Below the pieces are notes generated by a model. It had not been told where the DNA came from. It saw only the letters and a program-made list of their open reading frames with translations, and did not search any database. 64,000 bases of DNA, from positions 68,499 through 132,498 of the forward strand of contig WGLU01000007.1 of the NCBI GenBank assembly GCA_016125375.1. Direction: 5' to 3'. This DNA is from Pseudomonadota bacterium. GTDB taxonomy: Bacteria; Pseudomonadota; Alphaproteobacteria; UBA1280; RI-95. Made by a program: the position numbers and the translations under genes. Below, piece by piece: positions 1-64,000 of this stretch; the first letter of the stretch is position 1; each line of letters opens with the position of its first letter.

Positions 1-344
1 GTCTATATCCTTAACACGTTCTCAACTTAAGCTCTGGCAGAGGTGCGGACCATCCGCGCCTCAGGATGCGGTTTTTTCAACGTGACGGCAAAACCATAAG
101 GCCTGCCGTACCGCAGAGGTGTTTTTTAAGCGTTGGCGGGGTGTGCGTCAAGGGGAAAAATAACCAATGGAAGGGACCGTGTGCATTTTAATGGTAAAAT
201 ATTGCATACAACCCTTTGACATCGGCCCGCCGCATACCTAACCTTACATAAAGTACAAAGCTGTCTTCGGGCAGTTCCTATCTCCTGTATCTTTTCTTCT
301 CCTTGTGTTTTTCCCTGTTTTTCTTCTTTCGAAGAGGAATCAAC

Positions 345-2027
345 ATGCATACCTCCATCAAAGCGCTCCTGCTGGGCGCGGGTGCGGTTGCTGCGCTGGG
401 CCTCGGCCTGGTCGGTGGCAGCGGTTCCGCGAAGGCGGCGAACGAGGTCTACTCGGGCCTCATCTCCGGCGACCTGTCCATCAGCGAGAGCACCGCGCAG
501 CCGGGTCTGTCCGACAAGGCGCGTATCGAGCGCGAGCTGAGCGCCATGGTCTTCATCCAGGGCCCGGGCGTCAACGACGACGGCAGCATCAACCGTGAGG
601 GTTCCGCCCTCGGGTCGGGCTTCGTCATCGACAACAAGCGCTGTATCGTCGTCACCAACAACCACGTGACGGCCGGCCTGGCCTACGTGACCGTGACCTA
701 CCGTGTGGGCATCCGCCCGGACGGCTCGGCCATCCACAACACCACCTATGGCACGCTCATCGGTCACCCGACCGAGGAAAACGACATGGCCGTGGTGAAG
801 CTGGACAACTGCGAAGGCACGTCATGGGCGCCGATCGGCAACTCCAATGCCCTCGAGGCCGGTGACGTGGTCACCGCCATCGGCAACCCGTTCGGGCTGC
901 ACGAGACGGTGACGCACGGCGTGGTTTCGAACCCGCGTCAGCACCGCGAAGGCACCGGCGAGGGTGGCACGGCCTGGCCGTACATCCAGACCGACGCGCC
1001 GATCAACCCGGGTAACTCCGGCGGTCCGCTGTTCAACAGCGACGGCGAGGTCATCGGTATCAACTCCGAGATCTTCAGCAAGAGCGGCGGCAGTGTCGGT
1101 CTGGGTTTTGCCCGTCCGGCGGTTCTGCTCAAGCTCTACCTGAACAACCTCGCGCAGCACGGCCACATGGCCAAGCCGCGTATCGGCATCGAAGTCGCCC
1201 CTCTGACGGCGACCGAGGCGTCGATCATCGGCGTGGACAAGGCCATGAAGGACGCCGGCTTCGGCGACGGCATGGTCTCCAAGGGCTTCACGGGCGTCAG
1301 CGTCCACAACGTCGTCCCGGGTACCCCGGGTGCGGCTGCGGGCCTGAAGAAGGGCGACATCATCCTCGGTCTGGGCGGTCACGCCCAGTACGATATGTAC
1401 TCGCTCATCCGTGCGGTCGACCAGGTCATCCCTGGCGCGCCGACCAAGCTCACCTTCCTGCGTGACGGCCAGGTCCATACGGTCCTCGTCGCCCTGCAGG
1501 ACACCTGGACGGCTCCCGAGCCGCGCCCGGGTGCCGAGGCCTACGAAGGCCTGATGGGCTGGAAGCTGGAGATCGACCCGACCAAGTTCGGTACCGACCT
1601 GCCGGTCATCACGGACATCAAGCGCCTGAGCCCGGCCTTCAAGGTCGGTGGTCTCACCAAGGCCGAGGTCCATGAAGCCGAAGAGAAGCGGATGATGACG
1701 CCGGCCGGTCCGGCCACGCTCATCGTCAGCGGTCATCAGGAAACGGCGATCGACGCCGTTCTGGCCGAAGGTCTGGAGCGTCTGAACCTGGCCGATGTGC
1801 CGGCTGCCGAGCGCATCAGTGCGCTGGAAGCCTACATCGCCAAGGCGCATGCCGAAGGCCGGAAGGTGATGGTCTCCATCCATGTCCGCGTCAAGAGCGA
1901 AGCCAAGCTGGGCGAGAACAGCCTGCCGGCCGAGATCAAGGACAAGATCCTCAAGGGTCTGGCCGCTGGTCAGGATGTCGACAGCCAGTTCTATGTCGAG
2001 ATCAAGCCGAAGGCGTTCGCCAACTAA
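345..2027 (+). CDS. Secreted HtrA/DegP-family (S1C) trypsin-like serine protease with PDZ domain and ~170-aa C-terminal extension (paralog 1)
   Basis: ORF 303..2027 trimmed to the internal Met at 345 (SD gaagagga upstream). The N-terminus MHTSIKALLLGAGAVAALGLGLVGGSGSAKA looks like a signal peptide. Catalytic triad context: His in VVTNNHV, Asp in NDMAVVKLD, Ser in GNSGGPLFN. A PDZ-like segment follows (GDIILGLGG...LTFLRDGQVHTV). GC3 is very high. Confidence 0.8.
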   Translation: MHTSIKALLLGAGAVAALGLGLVGGSGSAKAANEVYSGLISGDLSISESTAQPGLSDKARIERELSAMVFIQGPGVNDDGSINREGSALGSGFVIDNKRCIVVTNNHVTAGLAYVTVTYRVGIRPDGSAIHNTTYGTLIGHPTEENDMAVVKLDNCEGTSWAPIGNSNALEAGDVVTAIGNPFGLHETVTHGVVSNPRQHREGTGEGGTAWPYIQTDAPINPGNSGGPLFNSDGEVIGINSEIFSKSGGSVGLGFARPAVLLKLYLNNLAQHGHMAKPRIGIEVAPLTATEASIIGVDKAMKDAGFGDGMVSKGFTGVSVHNVVPGTPGAAAGLKKGDIILGLGGHAQYDMYSLIRAVDQVIPGAPTKLTFLRDGQVHTVLVALQDTWTAPEPRPGAEAYEGLMGWKLEIDPTKFGTDLPVITDIKRLSPAFKVGGLTKAEVHEAEEKRMMTPAGPATLIVSGHQETAIDAVLAEGLERLNLADVPAAERISALEAYIAKAHAEGRKVMVSIHVRVKSEAKLGENSLPAEIKDKILKGLAAGQDVDSQFYVEIKPKAFAN

Positions 2028-2038
2028 CCAAGCGACAG

Positions 2039-2071
2039 GAAGCCCCCCCTCACCGGGGGGCTTCTTTTTTT
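2039..2071 (+). terminator. Rho-independent terminator (GAAGCCCCCC-loop-GGGGGGCTTC followed by T7)
   Basis: A 10-bp GC stem directly after stop codon 2025-2027, followed by a run of seven T. Confidence 0.8.
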
Positions 2072-2172
2072 GTTTTACAATAAGGGGGCGGTGGGCCTAC
2101 ACTCACAGAAATACCATCCTTTTGCTTTTCCCTTTTTGTATCTTCCCGCTTCTCTCTTCAGGAGAGGTCATC

Positions 2173-3324
2173 ATGATCATGAAAATCCTCCGCGCCCTGT
2201 ACGGGGTGTTCTGCGTCGTCCGCGACGTGTCGTTCGCGCTCGGCCTCATCGTCCTCGTCGCCTTCGGCTACCTGTTCGTCGACGAGCTGGGCAAGCTGCC
2301 CATCGACATGCCGGAAGCCGCCCGTGCCTACCCGGAAACGGCCGCGCCCGTGAAGATTCCGTTCAAGCTCGACCCGGCCGAAAGCACGGCGCTCGCCGGC
2401 CTGACCGATGCCCAGCGCACCGAGCGTATGCTGCGCTCCACCATCATGGTGGTGACCGGCGAACGCGCGCTTGGCTCCGGCGTCATCATCGACAACAAGG
2501 CCTGCTACGCGGTGACCAACGAGCACGTCATCGGCATCCCCGGTGACATCAAGGTCTCGTACATCACCCGCTTCCGTGAAGACGGCAGCGCCATCACCAA
2601 GACCGTCGACGCCGAGATTATGGGCATTCCGAGCAAGGACAACGACCTTGCCCTGCTCAAGCTCTCCGGCTGCGAAGGCACGTTCTGGGCGCCGATCGGC
2701 GACTCCGACGTCCTGCGTCACGGCGATCTGGTGACGGCCATCGGCCATCCGAAGGGCCAGTTCTGGACCCTGACGGAAGGCGTGGTCAGCCAGCCGCGCC
2801 GCAAGATGGAAGGCTACACCGACTCTTCCGGTTGGGAGATGATTCAGGTGGACGCCGCCATCAACAGCGGTAACTCCGGCGGTCCGCTCTTCACGCGTGG
2901 TGGTGCCCTCATCGGCATCAACTCCATGAAGCGCACCGACGGCGAGAACCTCGGCTACGCGCGTCCGGCCAATCTGGTCGAGACGTACCTGGTCTACCTG
3001 TCGCACTACGGTGCCATGCCAAAGATCCTGCTCGGCGTCGAGGTCAGCCAGATGGATGACGAGATGGCCGCCACCAATGGCGTGCCTGCGTCCTACATCA
3101 AGGCCGGCGACTTCGGCCTGCTGATCAAGACCGTCATGCCCGACGGCAAGGCGGCCAGCATTGGCCTGAAGGCCGACGACGTGCTGCTCGCCGTCAACGG
3201 CGACGGCGTGTACGACGTGCACCAGTTCAAGCGTCTGCTGTACCGGCACACGCCCCATGGCGCCATGAAGCTGACCATCATCCGTGACGGCCAGCTCCAG
3301 ACCGTGACCGTGTCCGGCAACTAA
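2173..3324 (+). CDS. Membrane-anchored HtrA/DegP-family (S1C) serine protease with PDZ domain (paralog 2)
   Basis: ORF 1882..3324 trimmed to MIMKIL at 2173 (SD ggagagg upstream). The upstream extension is Arg/Ser-rich and non-genic. The N-terminal TM helix is ALGLIVLVAFGYLFV. Catalytic context: His in AVTNEHV, Asp in DNDLALLKL, Ser in GNSGGPLFT. The PDZ-like C-terminus is clearly paralogous to 345..2027 (shared CEGT.WAPIG, LVTAIG motifs). Confidence 0.8.
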   Translation: MIMKILRALYGVFCVVRDVSFALGLIVLVAFGYLFVDELGKLPIDMPEAARAYPETAAPVKIPFKLDPAESTALAGLTDAQRTERMLRSTIMVVTGERALGSGVIIDNKACYAVTNEHVIGIPGDIKVSYITRFREDGSAITKTVDAEIMGIPSKDNDLALLKLSGCEGTFWAPIGDSDVLRHGDLVTAIGHPKGQFWTLTEGVVSQPRRKMEGYTDSSGWEMIQVDAAINSGNSGGPLFTRGGALIGINSMKRTDGENLGYARPANLVETYLVYLSHYGAMPKILLGVEVSQMDDEMAATNGVPASYIKAGDFGLLIKTVMPDGKAASIGLKADDVLLAVNGDGVYDVHQFKRLLYRHTPHGAMKLTIIRDGQLQTVTVSGN

Positions 3325-3334
3325 CCAAGCGACA

Positions 3335-3367
3335 AAGCCCCTATCCGCAAGGATAGGGGCTTTTTTT
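3335..3367 (+). terminator. Rho-independent terminator (AAGCCCCTATCC-GCAA-GGATAGGGGCTT followed by T7)
   Basis: A 12-bp stem 11 nt after stop 3322-3324, followed by seven T. It is preceded by the same 18-nt sequence (caactaaccaagcgaca) found after the first protease gene. Confidence 0.8.
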
Positions 3368-3407
3368 CTATGGTTGCTTTTGGCGTAAAGCGCGCTACTT
3401 TAAGGGC

Positions 3408-5408
3408 ATGACATTCAAACTCGCCAGTCCATTCAAACCCATGGGGGACCAGCCGGCCGCAATTGCGGGGTTGGTGCAAAGCCTGCGCGAAGGTAAGCGC
3501 GACCAGACGTTGCTGGGGGTTACCGGCTCCGGCAAGACGTTCACCATGGCCAATATCATTGCGCAAACAGGCCGCCCTGCGCTGATTATGGCGCACAACA
3601 AAACCCTTGCCGCGCAGTTGTACGAGGAGTTTAAGGACTTTTTTCCCGAGAACTCGGTGGAATATTTTGTCTCCTACTACGACTATTATCAGCCCGAGGC
3701 CTATGTACCCCGCTCGGATACGTATATCGAAAAAGACGCCAGCATCAACGAGCAGATTGACCGTATGCGCCACTCGGCCACGCGGGCGCTGTTCGAGCGC
3801 AGGGACGTGATTATCATTGCTTCTGTATCGTGCATTTACGGTATCGGCGATCCGGAGAGCTATTCCAACATGACCATTCCGGTGGCGGTGGGCGACACGC
3901 TGGAGCGGGACGGCTTCCTGAAACGGCTGGTGGAGTTGCAGTACGAACGTAACGACACGGTGCTCACCCGCGGCACGTTCCGCGCCCGTGGCGACGTGAT
4001 TGAGCTGTTCCCCAGCCACTTGGAAGATACCGCGTGGCGGATGAGTTTTTTTGACGACGAGGTGGAAAAGCTCCAGGCCATCGACGCACTAACTGGCAAG
4101 GTGGTGGAAACCTACGAGAGCGTGACCGTTTACCCCAACAGCCACTACGTGGTGCCCAAACCGCGTTTGCTGACGGCGATTGATACCATTCAGGCCGAGT
4201 TAAAAGAGCGCCTTAACTACCTGAATGCCAACGGTAAACTGCTCGAGGAACAACGCCTGCGCGAGCGCACCAACTTTGATTTGGAGATGATGCGCGCCCA
4301 CGGCTACTGTAACGGTATCGAGAACTACTCCCGCCACTTGACCGGCCGCCCGACGGGCGCACCGCCGCCGACCCTGTTTGACTATTTCCCGTCCGACGGT
4401 TTGCTGTTCGTGGACGAGAGCCACGTCACCGTGTCGCAAGTCGGTGGCATGAGCCGCGGTGATGCGGCACGTAAAGGCACACTGGTAGAGTTCGGGTTCC
4501 GCCTGCCATCCGCTATGGATAACCGTCCCCTGACGTTTGAGGAGTGGGATGCCCGCCGCCCGCAAACCGTCTACGTCAGCGCCACGCCGACTGAACGCGA
4601 ATTGAGCCTGAGTAAGGATAAAGTGTTCGAGCAGCTCATCCGTCCGACGGGTCTTATCGACCCGTCGGTCACCATCAAGCCTGTGGAAGGACAGGTGGAC
4701 GACCTGATGGCCGAAATCCACACCACCATCAAGGCGGGCTTCCGCGTGCTGGTGACGACCCTGACCAAAAAAATGGCCGAGCAGCTGACCGAGTATCTGG
4801 GCGAAAATGGCATTAAAGTCAGGTACATGCACTCGGACATTGATGCACTGGAGCGTTCGGAAATCATTCGCGAGTTGCGGCTGGGCACCTTTGATGTACT
4901 GGTGGGCATCAACTTGCTGCGTGAGGGGTTGGACATTCCGGAGGTCGCGCTGGTGGCCATTCTGGATGCGGATAAAGAAGGGTTCCTGCGTTCCACCACG
5001 TCGCTCATCCAGACCATTGGCCGTGCAGCCCGTAACGCCGATGGCCGCGTTATCCTGTATGCCGATACAGTGACCAAGTCCATCAAAGCAGCGCTGGACG
5101 AAACCGACCGCCGCCGTGACAAGCAAATGGCCTATAACGCCGAACACGGCATTACGCCCAAGACCATCATCAAGGATGTGAAGAACTACCTTGAGCGGGA
5201 AGACAAGCCCGACGGCAAGGGCGCTAAAAAGGCTGCTGCCGCGCAAGCTATGCTGCTGGACCCGAAAGCGCTGGATAAAGATTTGGCTGCGCTCCGCAAG
5301 GAGATGTTCAAGGCTGCCGAGGAACTGGAGTTCGAGCGTGCCGCACAGTTGCGGGACCGCATCCGCGAGGTGGAGGCGCTGCAGCTCGGTTTAGACGCCG
5401 GAATGTAG
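3408..5408 (+). CDS. uvrB: Excinuclease ABC subunit B
   Basis: The N-terminus has [19 protein letters not shown] (Walker A) and helicase motifs. The gene length (666 aa) is typical. A C-terminal UvrB/UvrC interaction helix is present ([18 protein letters not shown]). Confidence 0.95.
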
Positions 5409-7583: not shown

Positions 7584-7613
7584 AAAAAAAGGGGATGCGC
7601 GAGCATCCCCTTT
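7584..7613. terminator. Bidirectional hairpin terminator (GGGGATGC-GCGA-GCATCCCC flanked by A7 / T3)
   Basis: Sits between the convergent uvrC (+) and the CDF-like gene (-). It is a strong terminator for the minus strand, where the A7 run reads as T7, and a weaker one for the plus strand. Confidence 0.7.
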
Positions 7614-7619
7614 CGCTTG

Positions 7620-8240
7620 TCAGACGGTCTTGTCGACCAGCAGTTTGGTGCAGCGGTAGCCGAGGCGCGAGCCGGAGATGACCATCACCGCAGCGATGAG
7701 ATACACCAGCGCACCGTCCAGCCAGTACCAGCCGAGGGTGGTCATCAGGATGCCGGCGCCGGCCATCAGGACCGTCATCATCACGTGGGCGCTGATGTGC
7801 AGGCACACGCCCATCACGTTGACGTTGTGGCAGCCGCGGTAGAGCAGCCACGCCACAAAGCTGTGCAGGGCGAAGCTGACGCCCGAGAAGGCGGTCAGCC
7901 ACAGGCCTGCGTTGCCGCAGATGTCGGACCCGTGCATATGCATGTGGTGGGCGTGGCCCATACCGTACAGGCCGATGTTGGCACCCAGAATGATGAGGAT
8001 GACGGCGTTGACGAGGCCGCCGATGGCCTCGATACGGCGTTCGGCATCACCCAGCTTGAGCGCAACCAGTGCCGCCGCCCAGGCAACGAACATCACCGAG
8101 GTATGGCCGAGCATGTTGACGGCGTCCGCCGCCAGAGCATCGAGGCCGGTCAGGCGCGCACCGATGAACTCGGCCGCGGCAAAGGCGACCATCAGGCCAA
8201 TGGACAGGCTGATGCGCCATAGGGGGGTAAGGTTTTTCAT
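7620..8240 (-). CDS. Cation diffusion facilitator (CDF)-like transporter consisting of the transmembrane domain only (no cytoplasmic C-terminal domain); His-rich loop GHAHHMHMHG
   Basis: Matches CDF TM2/TM3/TM5 signatures: AADAVNMLGH (cf. ADAGHMLTD), RRIEAIGGLVNAV (cf. RAEILGALVN) and GVCLHISAHV (cf. LHVLGD). Six predicted TM helices in 206 aa. GC3-rich. Confidence 0.6.
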   Translation of the reverse strand: MKNLTPLWRISLSIGLMVAFAAAEFIGARLTGLDALAADAVNMLGHTSVMFVAWAAALVALKLGDAERRIEAIGGLVNAVILIILGANIGLYGMGHAHHMHMHGSDICGNAGLWLTAFSGVSFALHSFVAWLLYRGCHNVNVMGVCLHISAHVMMTVLMAGAGILMTTLGWYWLDGALVYLIAAVMVISGSRLGYRCTKLLVDKTV

Positions 8241-33542: not shown

Positions 33543-33619
33543 TGGTCGGCGTAGCAGGATTTGAACCTGCGACCCCCACGACCCGAACGTGGTGCGCTAC
33601 CAGGCTGCGCTACACGCCG
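33543..33619 (-). tRNA. tRNA-Pro (anticodon CGG)
   Basis: The reverse complement folds as a cloverleaf: CGGCGTG acceptor, GCGC D-stem, anticodon stem-loop CCACG-TTCGGGT-CGTGG, T-arm GCAGG-TTCAAAT-CCTGC, and 3' ACCA. It is highly similar to E. coli proK-type tRNA. Confidence 0.85.
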
Positions 33620-37589: not shown

Positions 37590-37595
37590 ATAACG

Positions 37596-37634
37596 AAAAA
37601 AGAGCAGGGCTTAGGTCCTGCTCTTTTGCTTTTG
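37596..37634. terminator. Bidirectional rho-independent terminator (AGAGCAGG-loop-CCTGCTCT with flanking A6 / T-run)
   Basis: Lies between the convergent 37161..37589 (+) and GlyRS (-) genes. The 8-bp stem is followed by TTTTGCTTTT. Confidence 0.7.
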
Positions 37635-39018: not shown

Positions 39019-39201
39019 TCCTTGACTGAAGTTAGTTGTTTGGTGCAGTGCGCAATGTACATGGAATAAATCAGCTTTTCAACCGCCCTTGCGTACGGGC
39101 GCGCGGCAGGGTATACATGAGGGATTAAACCTTGTGCTTTTTCCCGTTTCTTTTTCCTCCCTGATTCTTTTCCAGACCTTCCAGACAACAAGGGGTTTGG
39201 C

Positions 39202-40743
39202 ATGTCCAACCTGTTCAAGTTGCCGCCCAAGGTGCAGATCCGTGCCACGGGCTTTCCCTCGACCTTCCGCGACCTCGACATCTACAACACCCTCGATGGC
39301 CAGGATGCCCCGTCCGAAGTGACGGTGTTCTTTGCCAACAGCAAGGGCATCATGCCCAAGGGTGCCGAGGCCATCGGCGGTGCGCATCCGGCCGGTACGG
39401 CCGTCGACCGCCTCAACGCGTTCCTGACGCGCAACCGCTTCAACGCCGCCAAGGGCGAGATCATGATGTGGTCGAGCCAGCACGGCACGGCCATGATCGT
39501 GGGCGTGACCGACGGCAAGAAGACCGCGAACGACCTGCGTGCCCTGGGCACCAAGGTTGCCAAGGCCCTCAACGACAAGGGCTTCGTCTCCGCCACCATC
39601 ATCACCGAGAAGATGGGCCAGTGCGTCGGCGGCACCACGCGTGCGCTGACCTACGGCATCCAGACCGGTGTGTTCACCTACAGCCTCAAGTCCAAGGGCG
39701 ATGCCGAGCGCAAGCTCGCCGCGGTCGAGCTGGTTCCGTTCATGACCAGCAAGTGCTGCGACCTGGGCCAGGCCATCGGCGAGGCGAATGCCGCCGCCGA
39801 AGGCGCCAGCTTCATGCGCCAGCTCATCCTGATGCCGCCGAACATCCTCGGCACCAAGGAGCTGACTGCTGCGGCCCAGAGCCTGACCGACCTGAACAAG
39901 AAGCTCAGCGTCGACGTGCTGTTCGAGGACGAGCTCGAGCGCCTCGGCTTCGGTTCGCTGCTGGCCGTCGGCCGTGCCAGCGTGCAGAAGTCCTACGTGG
40001 TGGTGCTCCGCTACGAGGGCGACCCCGACGCGCCGTTGCAGGCGCTGGTCGGCAAGGGTCTCGTGTTCGACTCCGGCGGTATCAACATCAAGACCGACGG
40101 CGGCAAGGGCATGAAGGGCGACATGGGCGGCGCCGCGCTGGTGCTGGGTACCGTGTACGCCGCGGCTGCCAGCGACGCGAAGGTGAACCTCGTGGCCGTG
40201 ATCGGCTGCGTGGAGAACGCCATCGCCGGCAATGCCTACCGTCCGGACGACGTGCTCACCAGCCTGTCGGGCAAGACCATCGAGGTCACCAACACCGACG
40301 CCGAAGGGCGCCTGGTGCTGGCCGACTGCCTGACCTACGTGGAGCGCACGTTCAAGCCGGCGAGCATCACCAGCTTCGCCACGCTGACCGGTCACGCCGT
40401 GATTGCCTCGGGCAAGCGCGCGCCGATCTTCAGCAAGAACGACAAGCTGGCCGACGCCATGACCAAGGCGGCGGAGACCACCGGCGAGATGGTGCTGCGC
40501 TTCCCGCTCGACGAGTACCTCTGGGCCGAAATGTCCAGCCGCATCGCGGACATGATCAACTCCAGCGGTAACCGGATGAGCCCGGGCCATGTTACGGCCG
40601 CGCTCTTCCTGAACCAGTTCGTCGAGAAGACGCCTTACCTGCACGTCGACATCGCCGGCGCGTCGGACCTCTGGGGTCCGGACGGCGGCCAGTACGGTGT
40701 GCGCATGACGCTCCAGTTCCTCAAGGACCTGAGCAAAAAGTAA
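39202..40743 (+). CDS. pepA: Leucyl/cytosol aminopeptidase, M17 family
   Basis: M17 active-site signature NTDAEGRLVLADCL and metal-binding block VFDSGGINIKTDGGKGMKGDMGGAA. 513 aa. Strongly GC3-rich. Confidence 0.85.
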   Translation: MSNLFKLPPKVQIRATGFPSTFRDLDIYNTLDGQDAPSEVTVFFANSKGIMPKGAEAIGGAHPAGTAVDRLNAFLTRNRFNAAKGEIMMWSSQHGTAMIVGVTDGKKTANDLRALGTKVAKALNDKGFVSATIITEKMGQCVGGTTRALTYGIQTGVFTYSLKSKGDAERKLAAVELVPFMTSKCCDLGQAIGEANAAAEGASFMRQLILMPPNILGTKELTAAAQSLTDLNKKLSVDVLFEDELERLGFGSLLAVGRASVQKSYVVVLRYEGDPDAPLQALVGKGLVFDSGGINIKTDGGKGMKGDMGGAALVLGTVYAAAASDAKVNLVAVIGCVENAIAGNAYRPDDVLTSLSGKTIEVTNTDAEGRLVLADCLTYVERTFKPASITSFATLTGHAVIASGKRAPIFSKNDKLADAMTKAAETTGEMVLRFPLDEYLWAEMSSRIADMINSSGNRMSPGHVTAALFLNQFVEKTPYLHVDIAGASDLWGPDGGQYGVRMTLQFLKDLSKK

Positions 40744-40748
40744 CGATT

Positions 40749-40784
40749 GAAGCAGCCCGTGGGAAACCACGGGCTGCTTTTTTA
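40749..40784 (+). terminator. Rho-independent terminator (GAAGCAGCCCGTGG-GAAA-CCACGGGCTGCTT + T-run)
   Basis: A 12-bp stem 6 nt after the pepA stop, then T5. Confidence 0.8.
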
Positions 40785-50800: not shown

Positions 50801-50838
50801 AAAATAAAAACCCCCGCCGTGTGGCGGGGGTTTGTTCG
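50801..50838. terminator. Bidirectional rho-independent terminator (A10-CCCCCGCC-GTGT-GGCGGGGG-TTTGTT)
   Basis: Lies between convergent ispA (+) and the Sel1-repeat gene (-). The 8-bp GC stem is flanked by an A-run and a T-run. Confidence 0.8.
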
Positions 50839-50839
50839 T

Positions 50840-51829
50840 TTATTTCTTGGAGATGCTCTCCAGCAGCGTCTTCAGCTCCTGACGCTGGTCGTAGGTCATC
50901 TTGCTTTTCAGGTTATCCAGTTTGACCTGAATGTAGGCCTCGTCACCGGGGACGAGCCTGAACCACAGCCATGCCTTGACCAGGTCACCTGTATTGTCGA
51001 AATACAGGGCCATGTCGGAGCAGAGCTTTTTGGTATTCACGTTCATGCCTTCGGGGACACTGAAGCCGCGCTTGGTGCGCAGCATGTCCACGATCATGGT
51101 GTGGGCGCGGGGTTTGTCTTCCGCCGTGCCGCGGCCATATGCGTACATGAATGCGAGCATACCTTCCAAGCCGTCGATGCCGGCATCAACCCCTTCGCGG
51201 GCGAGAGTGAAGGCCAGCATGTCATCGGACGGCAGGTCTTTACCTTTCAGCAGCTCGGCGACGAGGATTTTTGGTGCCTGCGGATGGCCGCTATAGACAG
51301 CCTTCAGATACAGGCGCGTTGCCTTGGTGGGGTTTTTATCCGTGCCGATGCCCAGCATCAGGCAGCGGGCAGCTTCGGCAAGGCCGAACATGTTGTCCGC
51401 CTGAGCGGATTTTTCGTACCAGCCGAAGGCGGTCCGGGCATCTGCCGGGCAGGCGATGCCGTTTTCGATGTAGTAACCGAGAATGGTCATGGCCATGCCG
51501 TCACCGGTCTGGGCATGTTCCCAGACGCGTTTGAACAGCGCTTCGGCTGAGAGCGGTTCCGGTGCCGGAGCGGCGGCGGCAGCTTCAGGCTCGGCGGCCT
51601 TCGGGGTCGGGGGTGCTTCGAGCTGGAGGCCCTTTTCGGCCAGCAGCGCATCGACCCACGGGGCGAGCTTGGTGTCGCTGTTGCGGGCAAGCCAGAGCCA
51701 GCGGGTGGCCTCGACTTCGCGGTCGGGACCGAAGGCACCGGTCAGATAGGCAACGCCAAGGGCGTACATACTGGGGCCGTGGCCCACGCGTGCTTTGAAG
51801 AGGAGGTCCTCTTCGCGCTTGTTGGTCAT
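50840..51829 (-). CDS. Sel1-like repeat (SLR/TPR-like) protein with Ala/Pro-rich linker
   Basis: Repeated Sel1 units (YALGVAYLTGAFG...; GWYEKSAQADNMFGLAEAARCLMLGIGTDKNPTKA...). A linker PPTPKAAEPEAAAAAPAPEP is present. Start at MTNKREEDL. Confidence 0.65.
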   Translation of the reverse strand: MTNKREEDLLFKARVGHGPSMYALGVAYLTGAFGPDREVEATRWLWLARNSDTKLAPWVDALLAEKGLQLEAPPTPKAAEPEAAAAAPAPEPLSAEALFKRVWEHAQTGDGMAMTILGYYIENGIACPADARTAFGWYEKSAQADNMFGLAEAARCLMLGIGTDKNPTKATRLYLKAVYSGHPQAPKILVAELLKGKDLPSDDMLAFTLAREGVDAGIDGLEGMLAFMYAYGRGTAEDKPRAHTMIVDMLRTKRGFSVPEGMNVNTKKLCSDMALYFDNTGDLVKAWLWFRLVPGDEAYIQVKLDNLKSKMTYDQRQELKTLLESISKK

Positions 51830-54123: not shown

Positions 54124-54143
54124 CGTTCCAGCAACAAACGAGA

Positions 54144-54172
54144 AAGCACCGCCGCAAGGCGGTGCTTTTTTT
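54144..54172 (+). terminator. Rho-independent terminator (AAGCACCGCC-GCAA-GGCGGTGCTT + T7)
   Basis: A 10-bp stem 21 nt after the stop at 54123. Confidence 0.8.
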
Positions 54173-63059: not shown

Positions 63060-63273
63060 CAGCTCCCGTCGCACAGAAAGCGACACGCTCTTAGAAATTG
63101 AGAATAGGTGAGAAAAAGGATTCTGTGGGGCTCGGATAACGCCTAATTTTAGAAAGGCTGTTCCGAGAGTACCACAAGAATCACCCGTAATGAAAATTAT
63201 GGGTTTTAACTTGTGATGCGAAGTGAATAGCCAGACAAACTCGTCATCGGTTTTAGCGCCGAATGACTTCATC

Positions 63274-64000
<727 letters not shown>

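Follow-up and report, generated by a model that had tools for sequence, protein, structure and literature searches.

The closest described counterparts of the locus reported here are the HtrA proteases of the Escherichia coli envelope. DegP carries two PDZ domains, and DegS is anchored at its N terminus and carries one (PMC11642142). In the E. coli degQ-degS pair, the gene of a soluble two-PDZ protease is followed, across a short spacer and in the same orientation, by the gene of an anchored single-PDZ protease. The same arrangement occurs in a 64-kb stretch (57.6% GC) of contig WGLU01000007.1, hereafter called the window, where two co-oriented open reading frames (ORFs), H1 (560 aa) and H2 (383 aa), lie between a divergent rpsD just left of the window and uvrB (3408-5408) on the other side. 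The feature, which an earlier note had marked, is real and correctly located, and its explanation is largely ordinary. We consider it probable, taking the reading as a whole, that H1 and H2 are two separately transcribed genes for periplasmic HtrA-family serine proteases, which form a conserved envelope pair with an expression-linked codon bias and represent neither a foreign island nor a recent tandem duplication. Three aspects are mildly new: the replacement in place of the first gene, a cryptic second PDZ domain in a separate HtrA clade, and a conserved 3′-end signature. The two genes are as follows.

345-2027, plus strand: H1, a predicted exported HtrA protease with a signal peptide, the protease domain, PDZ1 (residues ~279-383) and a divergent PDZ2 with an insertion (residues ~400-555)

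H1 protease-domain residues, assigned by alignment: His107, Asp147 and Ser225, and the pair Cys100/Cys156

2173-3324, plus strand: H2 (383 aa), a predicted HtrA protease with one N-terminal transmembrane helix as its anchor and a single PDZ domain

Profile searches with Pfam and NCBIfam matched Trypsin_2 and PDZ domains in both proteins (Trypsin_2 with E = 1e-25 for H1 and 3e-24 for H2; PDZ_2 above its cut-off in each), which are 41% identical across 340 aa. The catalytic His107, Asp147 and Ser225 of H1 are invariant in family alignments of 9 and 13 sequences, and the alignment places their counterparts in H2 at His118, Asp158 and Ser235. Both proteins thus show what defines the HtrA/DegP family (S1C): the triad, the GNSGGPL motif, at least one C-terminal PDZ domain and an N terminus suited to envelope export. 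The export calls derive from Kyte-Doolittle hydropathy in 19-residue windows, not from a dedicated signal-peptide predictor; the N terminus of H1 is signal-peptide-like (2.06 at residue 5), and H2 has a single N-terminal hydrophobic helix (2.29 at residue 12). The earlier note had described paralogous S1C genes, one product secreted and the other membrane-anchored; the domain matches bear out the paralogy, and the hydrophobic N termini agree with the predicted locations.

In the public record MBI1364073.1, H2 starts at 1882 (480 aa), overlaps the last 146 nt of H1 and crosses the H1 terminator and the H2 promoter. This start is probably wrong. An independent gene call and all orthologues give H2 a length of about 375-385 aa, and because of these orthologues and a GGAGAGG site 5 nt upstream of 2173, the 383-aa form is favoured.

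How far does the likeness to the E. coli proteins extend? H1 has the plan of DegP and DegQ (protease, PDZ1 and, by fold search, PDZ2), H2 has that of DegS (N-terminal anchor and single PDZ), and both pairs carry the catalytic His/Asp/Ser and GNSGGPL. In the tree, however, H2 is not grouped with E. coli DegS and H1 is not grouped with DegQ; a 100% split separates H2 from E. coli DegS, which is placed with DegQ-type proteins, whereas H1 and H2 fall together in one separate clade with a conserved Cys pair. The NCBIfam equivalog cut-offs are missed two- to seven-fold: H2 scores 112 bits against 423 for DegS (TIGR02038 / NF008147), and H1 scores 165 against 756 for DegQ and 162 against 720 for DegP. 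The cut-off of the Do family serine endopeptidases (TIGR02037, 416 bits) is also missed, by H1 with 250 bits and by H2 with 194. Judged by these scores, H1 and H2 are divergent superfamily members outside the TIGR02037 subfamily, and the likeness to degQ-degS is one of architecture only.

The C-terminal part of H1 (residues ~400-561) had been called an extension of unknown fold, with a domain search suggested, and this description does not hold. A fold search was needed because Pfam is nearly empty on these regions: searched alone, the C-terminal regions of H1 and its relatives gave only one sub-threshold match to PDZ_6 (E = 0.017), in the relative L092 introduced below. The structure model of H1 is of moderate confidence (pLDDT 68 for the whole protein and 75 for the C-terminal part). 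At full length it aligns over ~470-490 columns with two-PDZ DegP/DegQ structures (E about 1e-27), the best matches being the solved structures 3otp, 3cs0 and 4ynn, to which the sequence identity is only 24-27%. The C-terminal domain alone also matches PDZ domains, including those of HtrA proteins. As modelled, H1 is a two-PDZ HtrA whose PDZ2 carries an insertion of ~60 residues. This PDZ2 is invisible to Pfam and, with its insertion, differs from E. coli DegQ; the insertion is common to distant proteins of the HtrA lineage to which the window H1 belongs (hereafter H1b).

The locus leaves the understanding of how HtrA proteases work unchanged. What it documents is a separate, poorly sampled HtrA clade, with a conserved Cys pair, an insertion-bearing PDZ2 that sequence profiles miss, and recurrent tandem arrays. 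Distant relatives in other genomic contexts include three tandem HtrA genes of the H1/H2 clade in L094 (10001-15180) and two in L137 (8001-11214).

A search with H2 found syntenic loci in three relatives from uncultured lineages, L088 (61.6% GC), L091 (54.4%) and L092 (52.1%). The order rpsD (minus strand), HtrA, HtrA, uvrB, uvrC, CDF transporter (minus strand) and a small gene is the same in the window and in all three. Further upstream, in the two contigs that reach there (L088 and L091), lie putA (minus strand), a hypothetical gene, a secretin and DUF4269. Identity to the window is 90-93% for rpsD, 85-89% for uvrB, 81-84% for uvrC and 59-65% for the H2 orthologues. In neighbour-joining trees of about 280 columns, the H2 clade has 100% bootstrap support and the window sequence is nested inside it. 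Because it is nested in this clade together with its syntenic orthologues, H2 is vertically inherited, and the rpsD-HtrA-HtrA-uvrB-uvrC-CDF order is inherited within an uncultured proteobacterial clade. The window and these close relatives belong to a clade that otherwise stands well apart from the GTDB genomes, among which uvrB as bait found a best match of only 69%, in a metagenome-assembled genome (MAG) of the Magnetococcales; no HtrA gene stands near uvrB in the 80 GTDB loci, which thus carry no synteny information. No integrase or mobility gene, tRNA or flanking repeat was found in or beside the locus, and the only tRNA of the window is at 33543. For H2, the window groups with L091 (96-99% bootstrap), but for uvrB and uvrC it groups with L088 (89%); recombination inside the locus or an artefact of the trees may lie behind this conflict.

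Codon usage had been the ground for suspecting a foreign origin. The G+C content at third codon positions (GC3) is 0.864 in H1 and 0.893 in H2, against 0.74 in uvrB and 0.76 in uvrC. Among the 59 window ORFs compared, the other 57 have a mean GC3 of 0.704 (sd 0.075), which places H1 at z = 2.1 (rank 5/59) and H2 at z = 2.5 (rank 2/59). The contrast with uvrB and uvrC is therefore real, but GC3 reaches at least 0.80 in 7/59 ORFs, so that H1 and H2 lie in an upper tail and are not unique. Their GC1 and GC2 are ordinary. The GC3 ranges of the syntenic genes in the four lineages are given below, first for HtrA1, HtrA2, CDF and the small gene and then for rpsD, uvrB and uvrC.

Window: 0.84-0.89, and 0.66-0.76

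L088: 0.88-0.95, and 0.74-0.80

L091: 0.70-0.82, and 0.56-0.63

L092: 0.64-0.75, and 0.47-0.55

The excess of the first group over the second is 0.1-0.25 in all relatives, whatever the GC content of the genome. Could the two genes nevertheless be recently acquired from a GC-richer donor, with a codon usage not yet adjusted? Their z-scores would suit such an origin, as would the lack of any H1 homologue above 46% identity in the very large protein collections searched. For H2 it is contradicted by the conservation of the gene and of the gene order in three relatives. The same slots also show the excess against background GC3 values of 0.50, 0.60 and 0.77; GC1 and GC2 are ordinary; and five other scattered genes have the same bias. 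Moreover, GGG and CGG drop while CGT and GGT hold, the opposite of a simple GC enrichment. A recent genomic island looks different: here the HtrA pair stands at the same place in three relatives, its composition is otherwise explained, and marks of mobility are absent. We regard the acquisition of the unit as most improbable. A foreign origin is not supported by a codon-specific excess that recurs in the same slots of three relatives with genome GC of 52-62%. Because the trait stays with the gene across speciation and a 10-point change in genome GC, the bias is not that of unadjusted foreign DNA. An excess of GC3 in adjacent genes is easily read as horizontal transfer, and the syntenic relatives of different GC show it here to be an inherited, gene-specific trait.

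Which codons make up the bias? From background to high-bias genes of the window, the fractions fall from 0.15 to 0.03 for GGG, 0.16 to 0.08 for CGG, 0.54 to 0.04 for AAA, 0.46 to 0.04 for TTT and 0.41 to 0.08 for ATT, and AGR, ATA, GTA and CCA nearly disappear. CGT rises from 0.25 to 0.46, whereas GGT holds (0.25 to 0.30) and GAA is mostly retained (0.47 to 0.39). The relatives share this pattern; L092, for instance, shows a drop in GGG from 0.32 to 0.04, with GGT, CGT and GAA unchanged. rpsD has no GGG, GGA, CGG or AGR, and 43-50% CGT and GGT. The preference for G/C-ending codons is thus a conserved, gene-specific and codon-specific property of these slots. Each of the six genes of highest GC3 combines a promoter region of its own with a pyrimidine-rich leader and a strong terminator, and GC3 correlates with the pyrimidine richness of the leader (rho 0.37, p 0.003). 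We infer that the codon bias reflects selection for efficient translation of abundantly made proteins. This would agree with the private promoters and strong terminators, with strong Shine-Dalgarno sites behind long CU-rich leaders, and with the 5′ hairpin.

GC-biased gene conversion at a recombination-prone locus is a different possible source of the high GC3, and the high-GC3 genes are indeed the fastest evolving or exchanged: H1 has been replaced, H2 is conserved at 59-65%, CDF at 43% in L088 and the small neighbour at 52-59%, against 85-89% for uvrB. The discordant pairing of the window in the H2 and uvrB trees likewise hints at recombination. Such conversion should, however, raise all G/C-ending codons, yet GGG nearly vanishes in both the window and L092, CGG drops or stays flat, GAA and GAG hardly change, and CGT and GGT, which end in T, hold their share or gain. 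The bias also accompanies strong expression signals. As the main cause of the high GC3, biased conversion is in our estimate unlikely, and selection on translation remains the preferred explanation.

An M17 leucyl-aminopeptidase-like gene (39202-40743) has the highest GC3 of the window (0.92, with an A3 of 0.01) and its own strong terminator, within the region 39129-40780. The leader motif of H1 and H2 precedes it as ACCTTGTGCTTTTTCCCGTTT, and the gene can apparently be counted with them among the strongly biased genes that are transcribed separately. A contig search with it yielded nothing beyond a 4-kb contig.

The first gene of the pair has a different history from the second. Designating the first HtrA gene of L088, L091 and L092 as H1a, the window H1 is only 31-34% identical to these proteins, which are 57-67% identical among themselves. 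Its motifs (GSG.IIDNK.C..TN.HV and CEG..WAP) match the H2/H1b group and not H1a. The nearest known relative of H1 is P0243, with 45% identity over the full length; the two group at 98-99% bootstrap, with H1a on the far side of a 100% split. For uvrB the topology is ((window,L088),(L091,L092)), supported at 89%, and the uvrC identities agree. Because of this tree, H1a is taken as the ancestral occupant, which the window lineage swapped for a gene of H1b type after separating from L088. No H1a homologue from the MAG of the window was found in the protein collection searched. In L139, a locus of a more distant relative (rpsD 79% identical), rpsD is directly followed by an H2-type gene, so that the first slot has at least three states among the relatives: H1a, H1b and empty. 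Only the last ~30 nt before the ATG of H1 are clearly less similar to the relatives than expected; the promoter and the upstream region are shared, and elsewhere in the leader the identity of the window to the relatives is no lower than that among the relatives.

Alternatively, H1 might be the true positional orthologue of H1a, diverged in place under strong positive selection. It shares its promoter, part of its leader and the style of its terminator with the first gene of the relatives, and all first-slot proteins have the post-PDZ1 motifs (W..PE..P..Y..xG and the terminal P(K/R)x(Y/F)) and a PDZ2-like region. Divergence in place would nonetheless require H1 to converge on the clade motifs absent from H1a (DNKxC..TNxHV and CEG..WAP), on the ~60-aa PDZ2 insertion of distant H1b proteins and on its grouping with P0243, all while uvrB changed by only 11%; we judge it very unlikely. 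The comparison instead indicates that H1 was replaced in place by a different member of the HtrA family, with L088 as the sister lineage that has H1a. A non-vertical origin thus holds for H1 only, in that H1 is not the orthologue of the relatives' first gene, whereas H2, nested among its syntenic orthologues, is vertical. It is a clean case in which one member of a conserved gene pair is replaced by a distant homologue while the flanking genes are still 85-93% identical.

Both genes end in the same short sequence, directly followed by a terminator:

2021-2037, plus strand: 17-nt motif, copy 1, CAACTAACCAAGCGACA, spanning the stop codon

3318-3334, plus strand: 17-nt motif, copy 2, CAACTAACCAAGCGACA; the ancestral H2 3′ end reads AACTAACCAAACGATG in L092 and TGACCTCAAGCGACAG in L088

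2037-2073, plus strand: H1 intrinsic terminator, GAAGCCCCCCC..GGGGGGCTTC and then a T run; fold z = -3.6

3334-3370, plus strand: H2 intrinsic terminator, whose stem GCCCCTATCC is conserved in L088 and L092; fold z = -5.2

The shared segment is real, at 17 nt and not the 18 nt first reported, and with mismatches it extends to 21/23 nt. In 2000 trials with shuffled 70-nt 3′ regions, the longest exact match never exceeded 11 nt, and no further copy occurs in the window at up to 3 mismatches. Very stable hairpins (2037-2066 and 3334-3363), each followed by a T run, confirm that each gene has its own terminator. The earlier note took the repeat as a sign that a gene-plus-terminator unit had been duplicated. 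A recent duplication does not account for it adequately: the two terminators have different loops and largely different stems, even the best blocks of the coding DNA reach only ~70-75% identity, and the stop-codon motif is present in family members of other genomes.

The 3′ ends of these family members read AAC TAA CCAAACGATGAAA GCCCCTATCC in the H2 orthologue of L092 and TGA CCTCAAGCGACA GCCCCTATCC in that of L088; ACC AAC TAA GCGACAG AGCCCCCC in an H1b-like gene of L137 and GCC AAC TAA TCGA CCCCCC in the first gene of that array; GGC AAC TAA AATCGATAAAAACA GGCCGC in a gene of L002; and TAA CGACAAGAGCC in one of L094. Across 15 family genes from seven genomes, the stop codon is TAA in 14, preceded by AAC in 6, and CGA stands between the stop and the terminator stem in 13; within the window, only H1 and H2 (2/59 ORFs) end in AAC TAA. 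The signature can be written as a terminal AAC, TAA, 0-6 nt, (A/G)CGA(C/T)A, purine-rich bases and a GCCCC-type terminator stem. The 17-nt match between H1 and H2 is confined to the window, as the H1 and H2 3′ ends of the relatives share at most 8 nt, and the CCAA spacer characteristic of H2 forms part of it. Within the coding sequence, strong codon bias is by itself enough to make H1 and H2 identical over 20 nt, at GNSGGPL.

From these comparisons, the 17-mer is best described as the best-preserved local instance of a family-wide 3′-end signature. The signature would go back to an ancestor shared by the H1b and H2 lineages and would have been kept by constraint. It is consistent with an origin of H2 from a two-PDZ ancestor by loss of PDZ2, in which the last codons and the 3′ flank were retained. 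The exact identity over 17 nt may be explained by short gene conversion; a short H2-to-H1 conversion tract, or a recombination junction left by the replacement event, would be the simplest account of the perfect match. The motif was also considered as a LexA box for uvrB and rejected, as the GTTC-N7-AACC in H1 is unmatched in H2.

Might the stretch from the last codon to the terminator instead be a functional RNA element, for instance a site of protein binding or processing, or the single-stranded seed of a small RNA released from the 3′ end of each htrA mRNA, so that the two genes would yield sibling RNAs sharing one seed? All 17 nt are identical although the coding DNA has diverged much further, and 3′ ends of this kind are found across genomes of 43-65% GC, in family genes with a protein identity of only 30-45%. 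In addition, the motif is predicted to be mostly unpaired, adjoining a very stable hairpin and U run. On the two strands of the window (128 kb), for which base composition would predict ~8 copies, CAAGCGA has just 3, at 2029, 3326 and 7619 (minus strand); each copy follows the stop codon of a gene with high GC3 (H1, H2 and CDF, respectively) at a distance of 1-2 nt and precedes the terminator. These observations are, however, partly explained by a shared terminal Asn codon and TAA under strong codon bias, and partly by a clade-wide spacer of ACGA plus A-rich bases before many unrelated terminators, including that of rpsD. H2 orthologues vary at several positions of the motif, no Rfam family matches it, and a search of the window for a complementary target returned only the motif itself. 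We therefore hold an RNA element of this kind to be doubtful, and prefer inheritance of the signature with local conversion. A more far-reaching proposal, which we think quite improbable, is that the stop-codon motif and terminator are a functional 3′-end module of the HtrA clade, giving in this genome two sibling RNAs with an identical 17-nt single-stranded seed. If this were true, sibling RNAs from the mRNAs of a secreted and a membrane-bound protease would link protease expression to the regulation of other envelope genes. The same low estimate covers a related reading, in which the first slot, with its three states, could be a hot spot for swapping secreted proteases under diversifying selection.

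The (A/G)CGA element with A-rich bases, 1-8 nt before the stem, is found at ~8/15 strong terminators of the window, for example at 7591-7619 (minus strand), 37590-37625, 50810-50840 (minus strand) and 54135-54165, and also at rpsD terminators of the relatives L088, L091 and L092. We know of no described meaning for it.

Several points weigh against the reading of H1 and H2 as an inherited, highly expressed pair with a replaced first member. rpsD, the only ribosomal-protein gene at hand, has an average GC3 (0.66) and, unlike the HtrA genes, prefers GAA, GTT and CCT; the codon bias of H1 and H2 is therefore not simply ribosomal-protein-like. H1 and H2 are probably highly expressed, judging from codon choice and signal strength only, and since the high-GC3 genes are also fast-evolving and recombining, GC-biased gene conversion could contribute to their composition. 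A function of the 17-mer is putative. As for the replacement, the genome is a MAG, so that H1a might be present elsewhere in it, and the breakpoints could not be fixed, as pyrimidine-rich leaders and terminator stems of G/C homopolymers are common to all lineages. The deep nodes inside the H1b/H2 clade are poorly supported in the neighbour-joining trees.

Each of the two genes is preceded by its own signals for transcription and translation:

202-211, plus strand: TTGCATACAA, upstream of the -35 box of the H1 promoter, conserved in L091 and L092 and varying in the third relative

216-244, plus strand: predicted sigma-70-like H1 promoter (TTGACA, 17-nt spacer, TAACCT), in invariant alignment columns with the first HtrA gene of the relatives

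259-276, plus strand: leader hairpin with a UUCG loop, from folds of four orthologous leaders

277-331, plus strand: CU-rich tract of the H1 leader, containing TCCTTGTGTTTTTCCCTGTTT, of which there is a second copy at 2117 and one with 3 mismatches at 39129

332-339, plus strand: H1 Shine-Dalgarno site AAGAGGAA, with a weak predicted pairing of the U-rich 317-326 with 331-340

2074-2103, plus strand: H2 promoter-like site from a promoter scan (TTTACA, 18-nt spacer, TACACT)

2117-2167, plus strand: CU-rich H2 leader and Shine-Dalgarno site GGAGAGG (2161-2167)

A strict consensus scan did not pick up the H1 promoter. TTGCATACAA may be the binding site of a regulator; this candidate element also precedes a distant H1b gene of L002 (about 7880-7890; 43.6% GC, different neighbourhood). 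When metagenomes were scanned for the promoter motif TTGCATACAANNNTTTGACAT, 41 contigs matched; rpsD, uvrB and H1/H2-type proteases are encoded on none of them, and we take these as chance matches. All four first-slot leaders have a 5′-proximal hairpin at the same relative place with a different sequence, followed by a CU-rich tract and a purine-rich Shine-Dalgarno site. A stabilising 5′ hairpin and an unstructured pyrimidine tract would fit a strongly translated, long-lived mRNA.

The fourU RNA thermometer in the 5′-untranslated region of Salmonella htrA pairs a U-rich stretch with the Shine-Dalgarno sequence (PMC5602114), and the H1 leader is likewise predicted to pair the U-rich 317-326 with its Shine-Dalgarno site through A-U and G-U pairs. 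The H1 leader, however, measures about 95 nt, far more than its Salmonella counterpart, and its CU tract takes up about 55 nt; it folds barely better than shuffled sequences and has no Rfam match. Compared with shuffles, the z-scores of the folds are -1.95 for H1 and 0.06 for H2; the pairing of the Shine-Dalgarno site with pyrimidines is predicted in both with weak support, and such a prediction is to be expected wherever a CU-rich leader precedes a purine-rich Shine-Dalgarno site. Rfam searches of the whole window at the gathering threshold and of positions 1-3500 at a permissive threshold gave only sub-threshold matches driven by the terminators. We treat the thermometer-like leader as a lead only.

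The CDF transporter seems to be a second exchanged gene of the neighbourhood: its counterpart in L088 (15691-17315) is only 43% identical to the window gene (7620-8240), against 73-76% in L091 and L092, and in L088 an extra MauE-like gene lies beside it. At the other edge, the 5′ region of rpsD (window 1-160, minus strand) contains blocks that are 93-100% identical across the four lineages, for example at 105-134, and a hairpin at 51-71; these conserved blocks are probably the S4 autoregulatory leader. Elsewhere in the window, the segment 13000-25000 (minus strand) has a lower GC content (0.51-0.56) and a GC3 of 0.58-0.69, and would on composition be a better candidate for acquired DNA than the protease genes. 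Finally, the 5′ half of a 16S rRNA gene, running off the end of the window, is located at 63273-64000 (Rfam, 737 bits).

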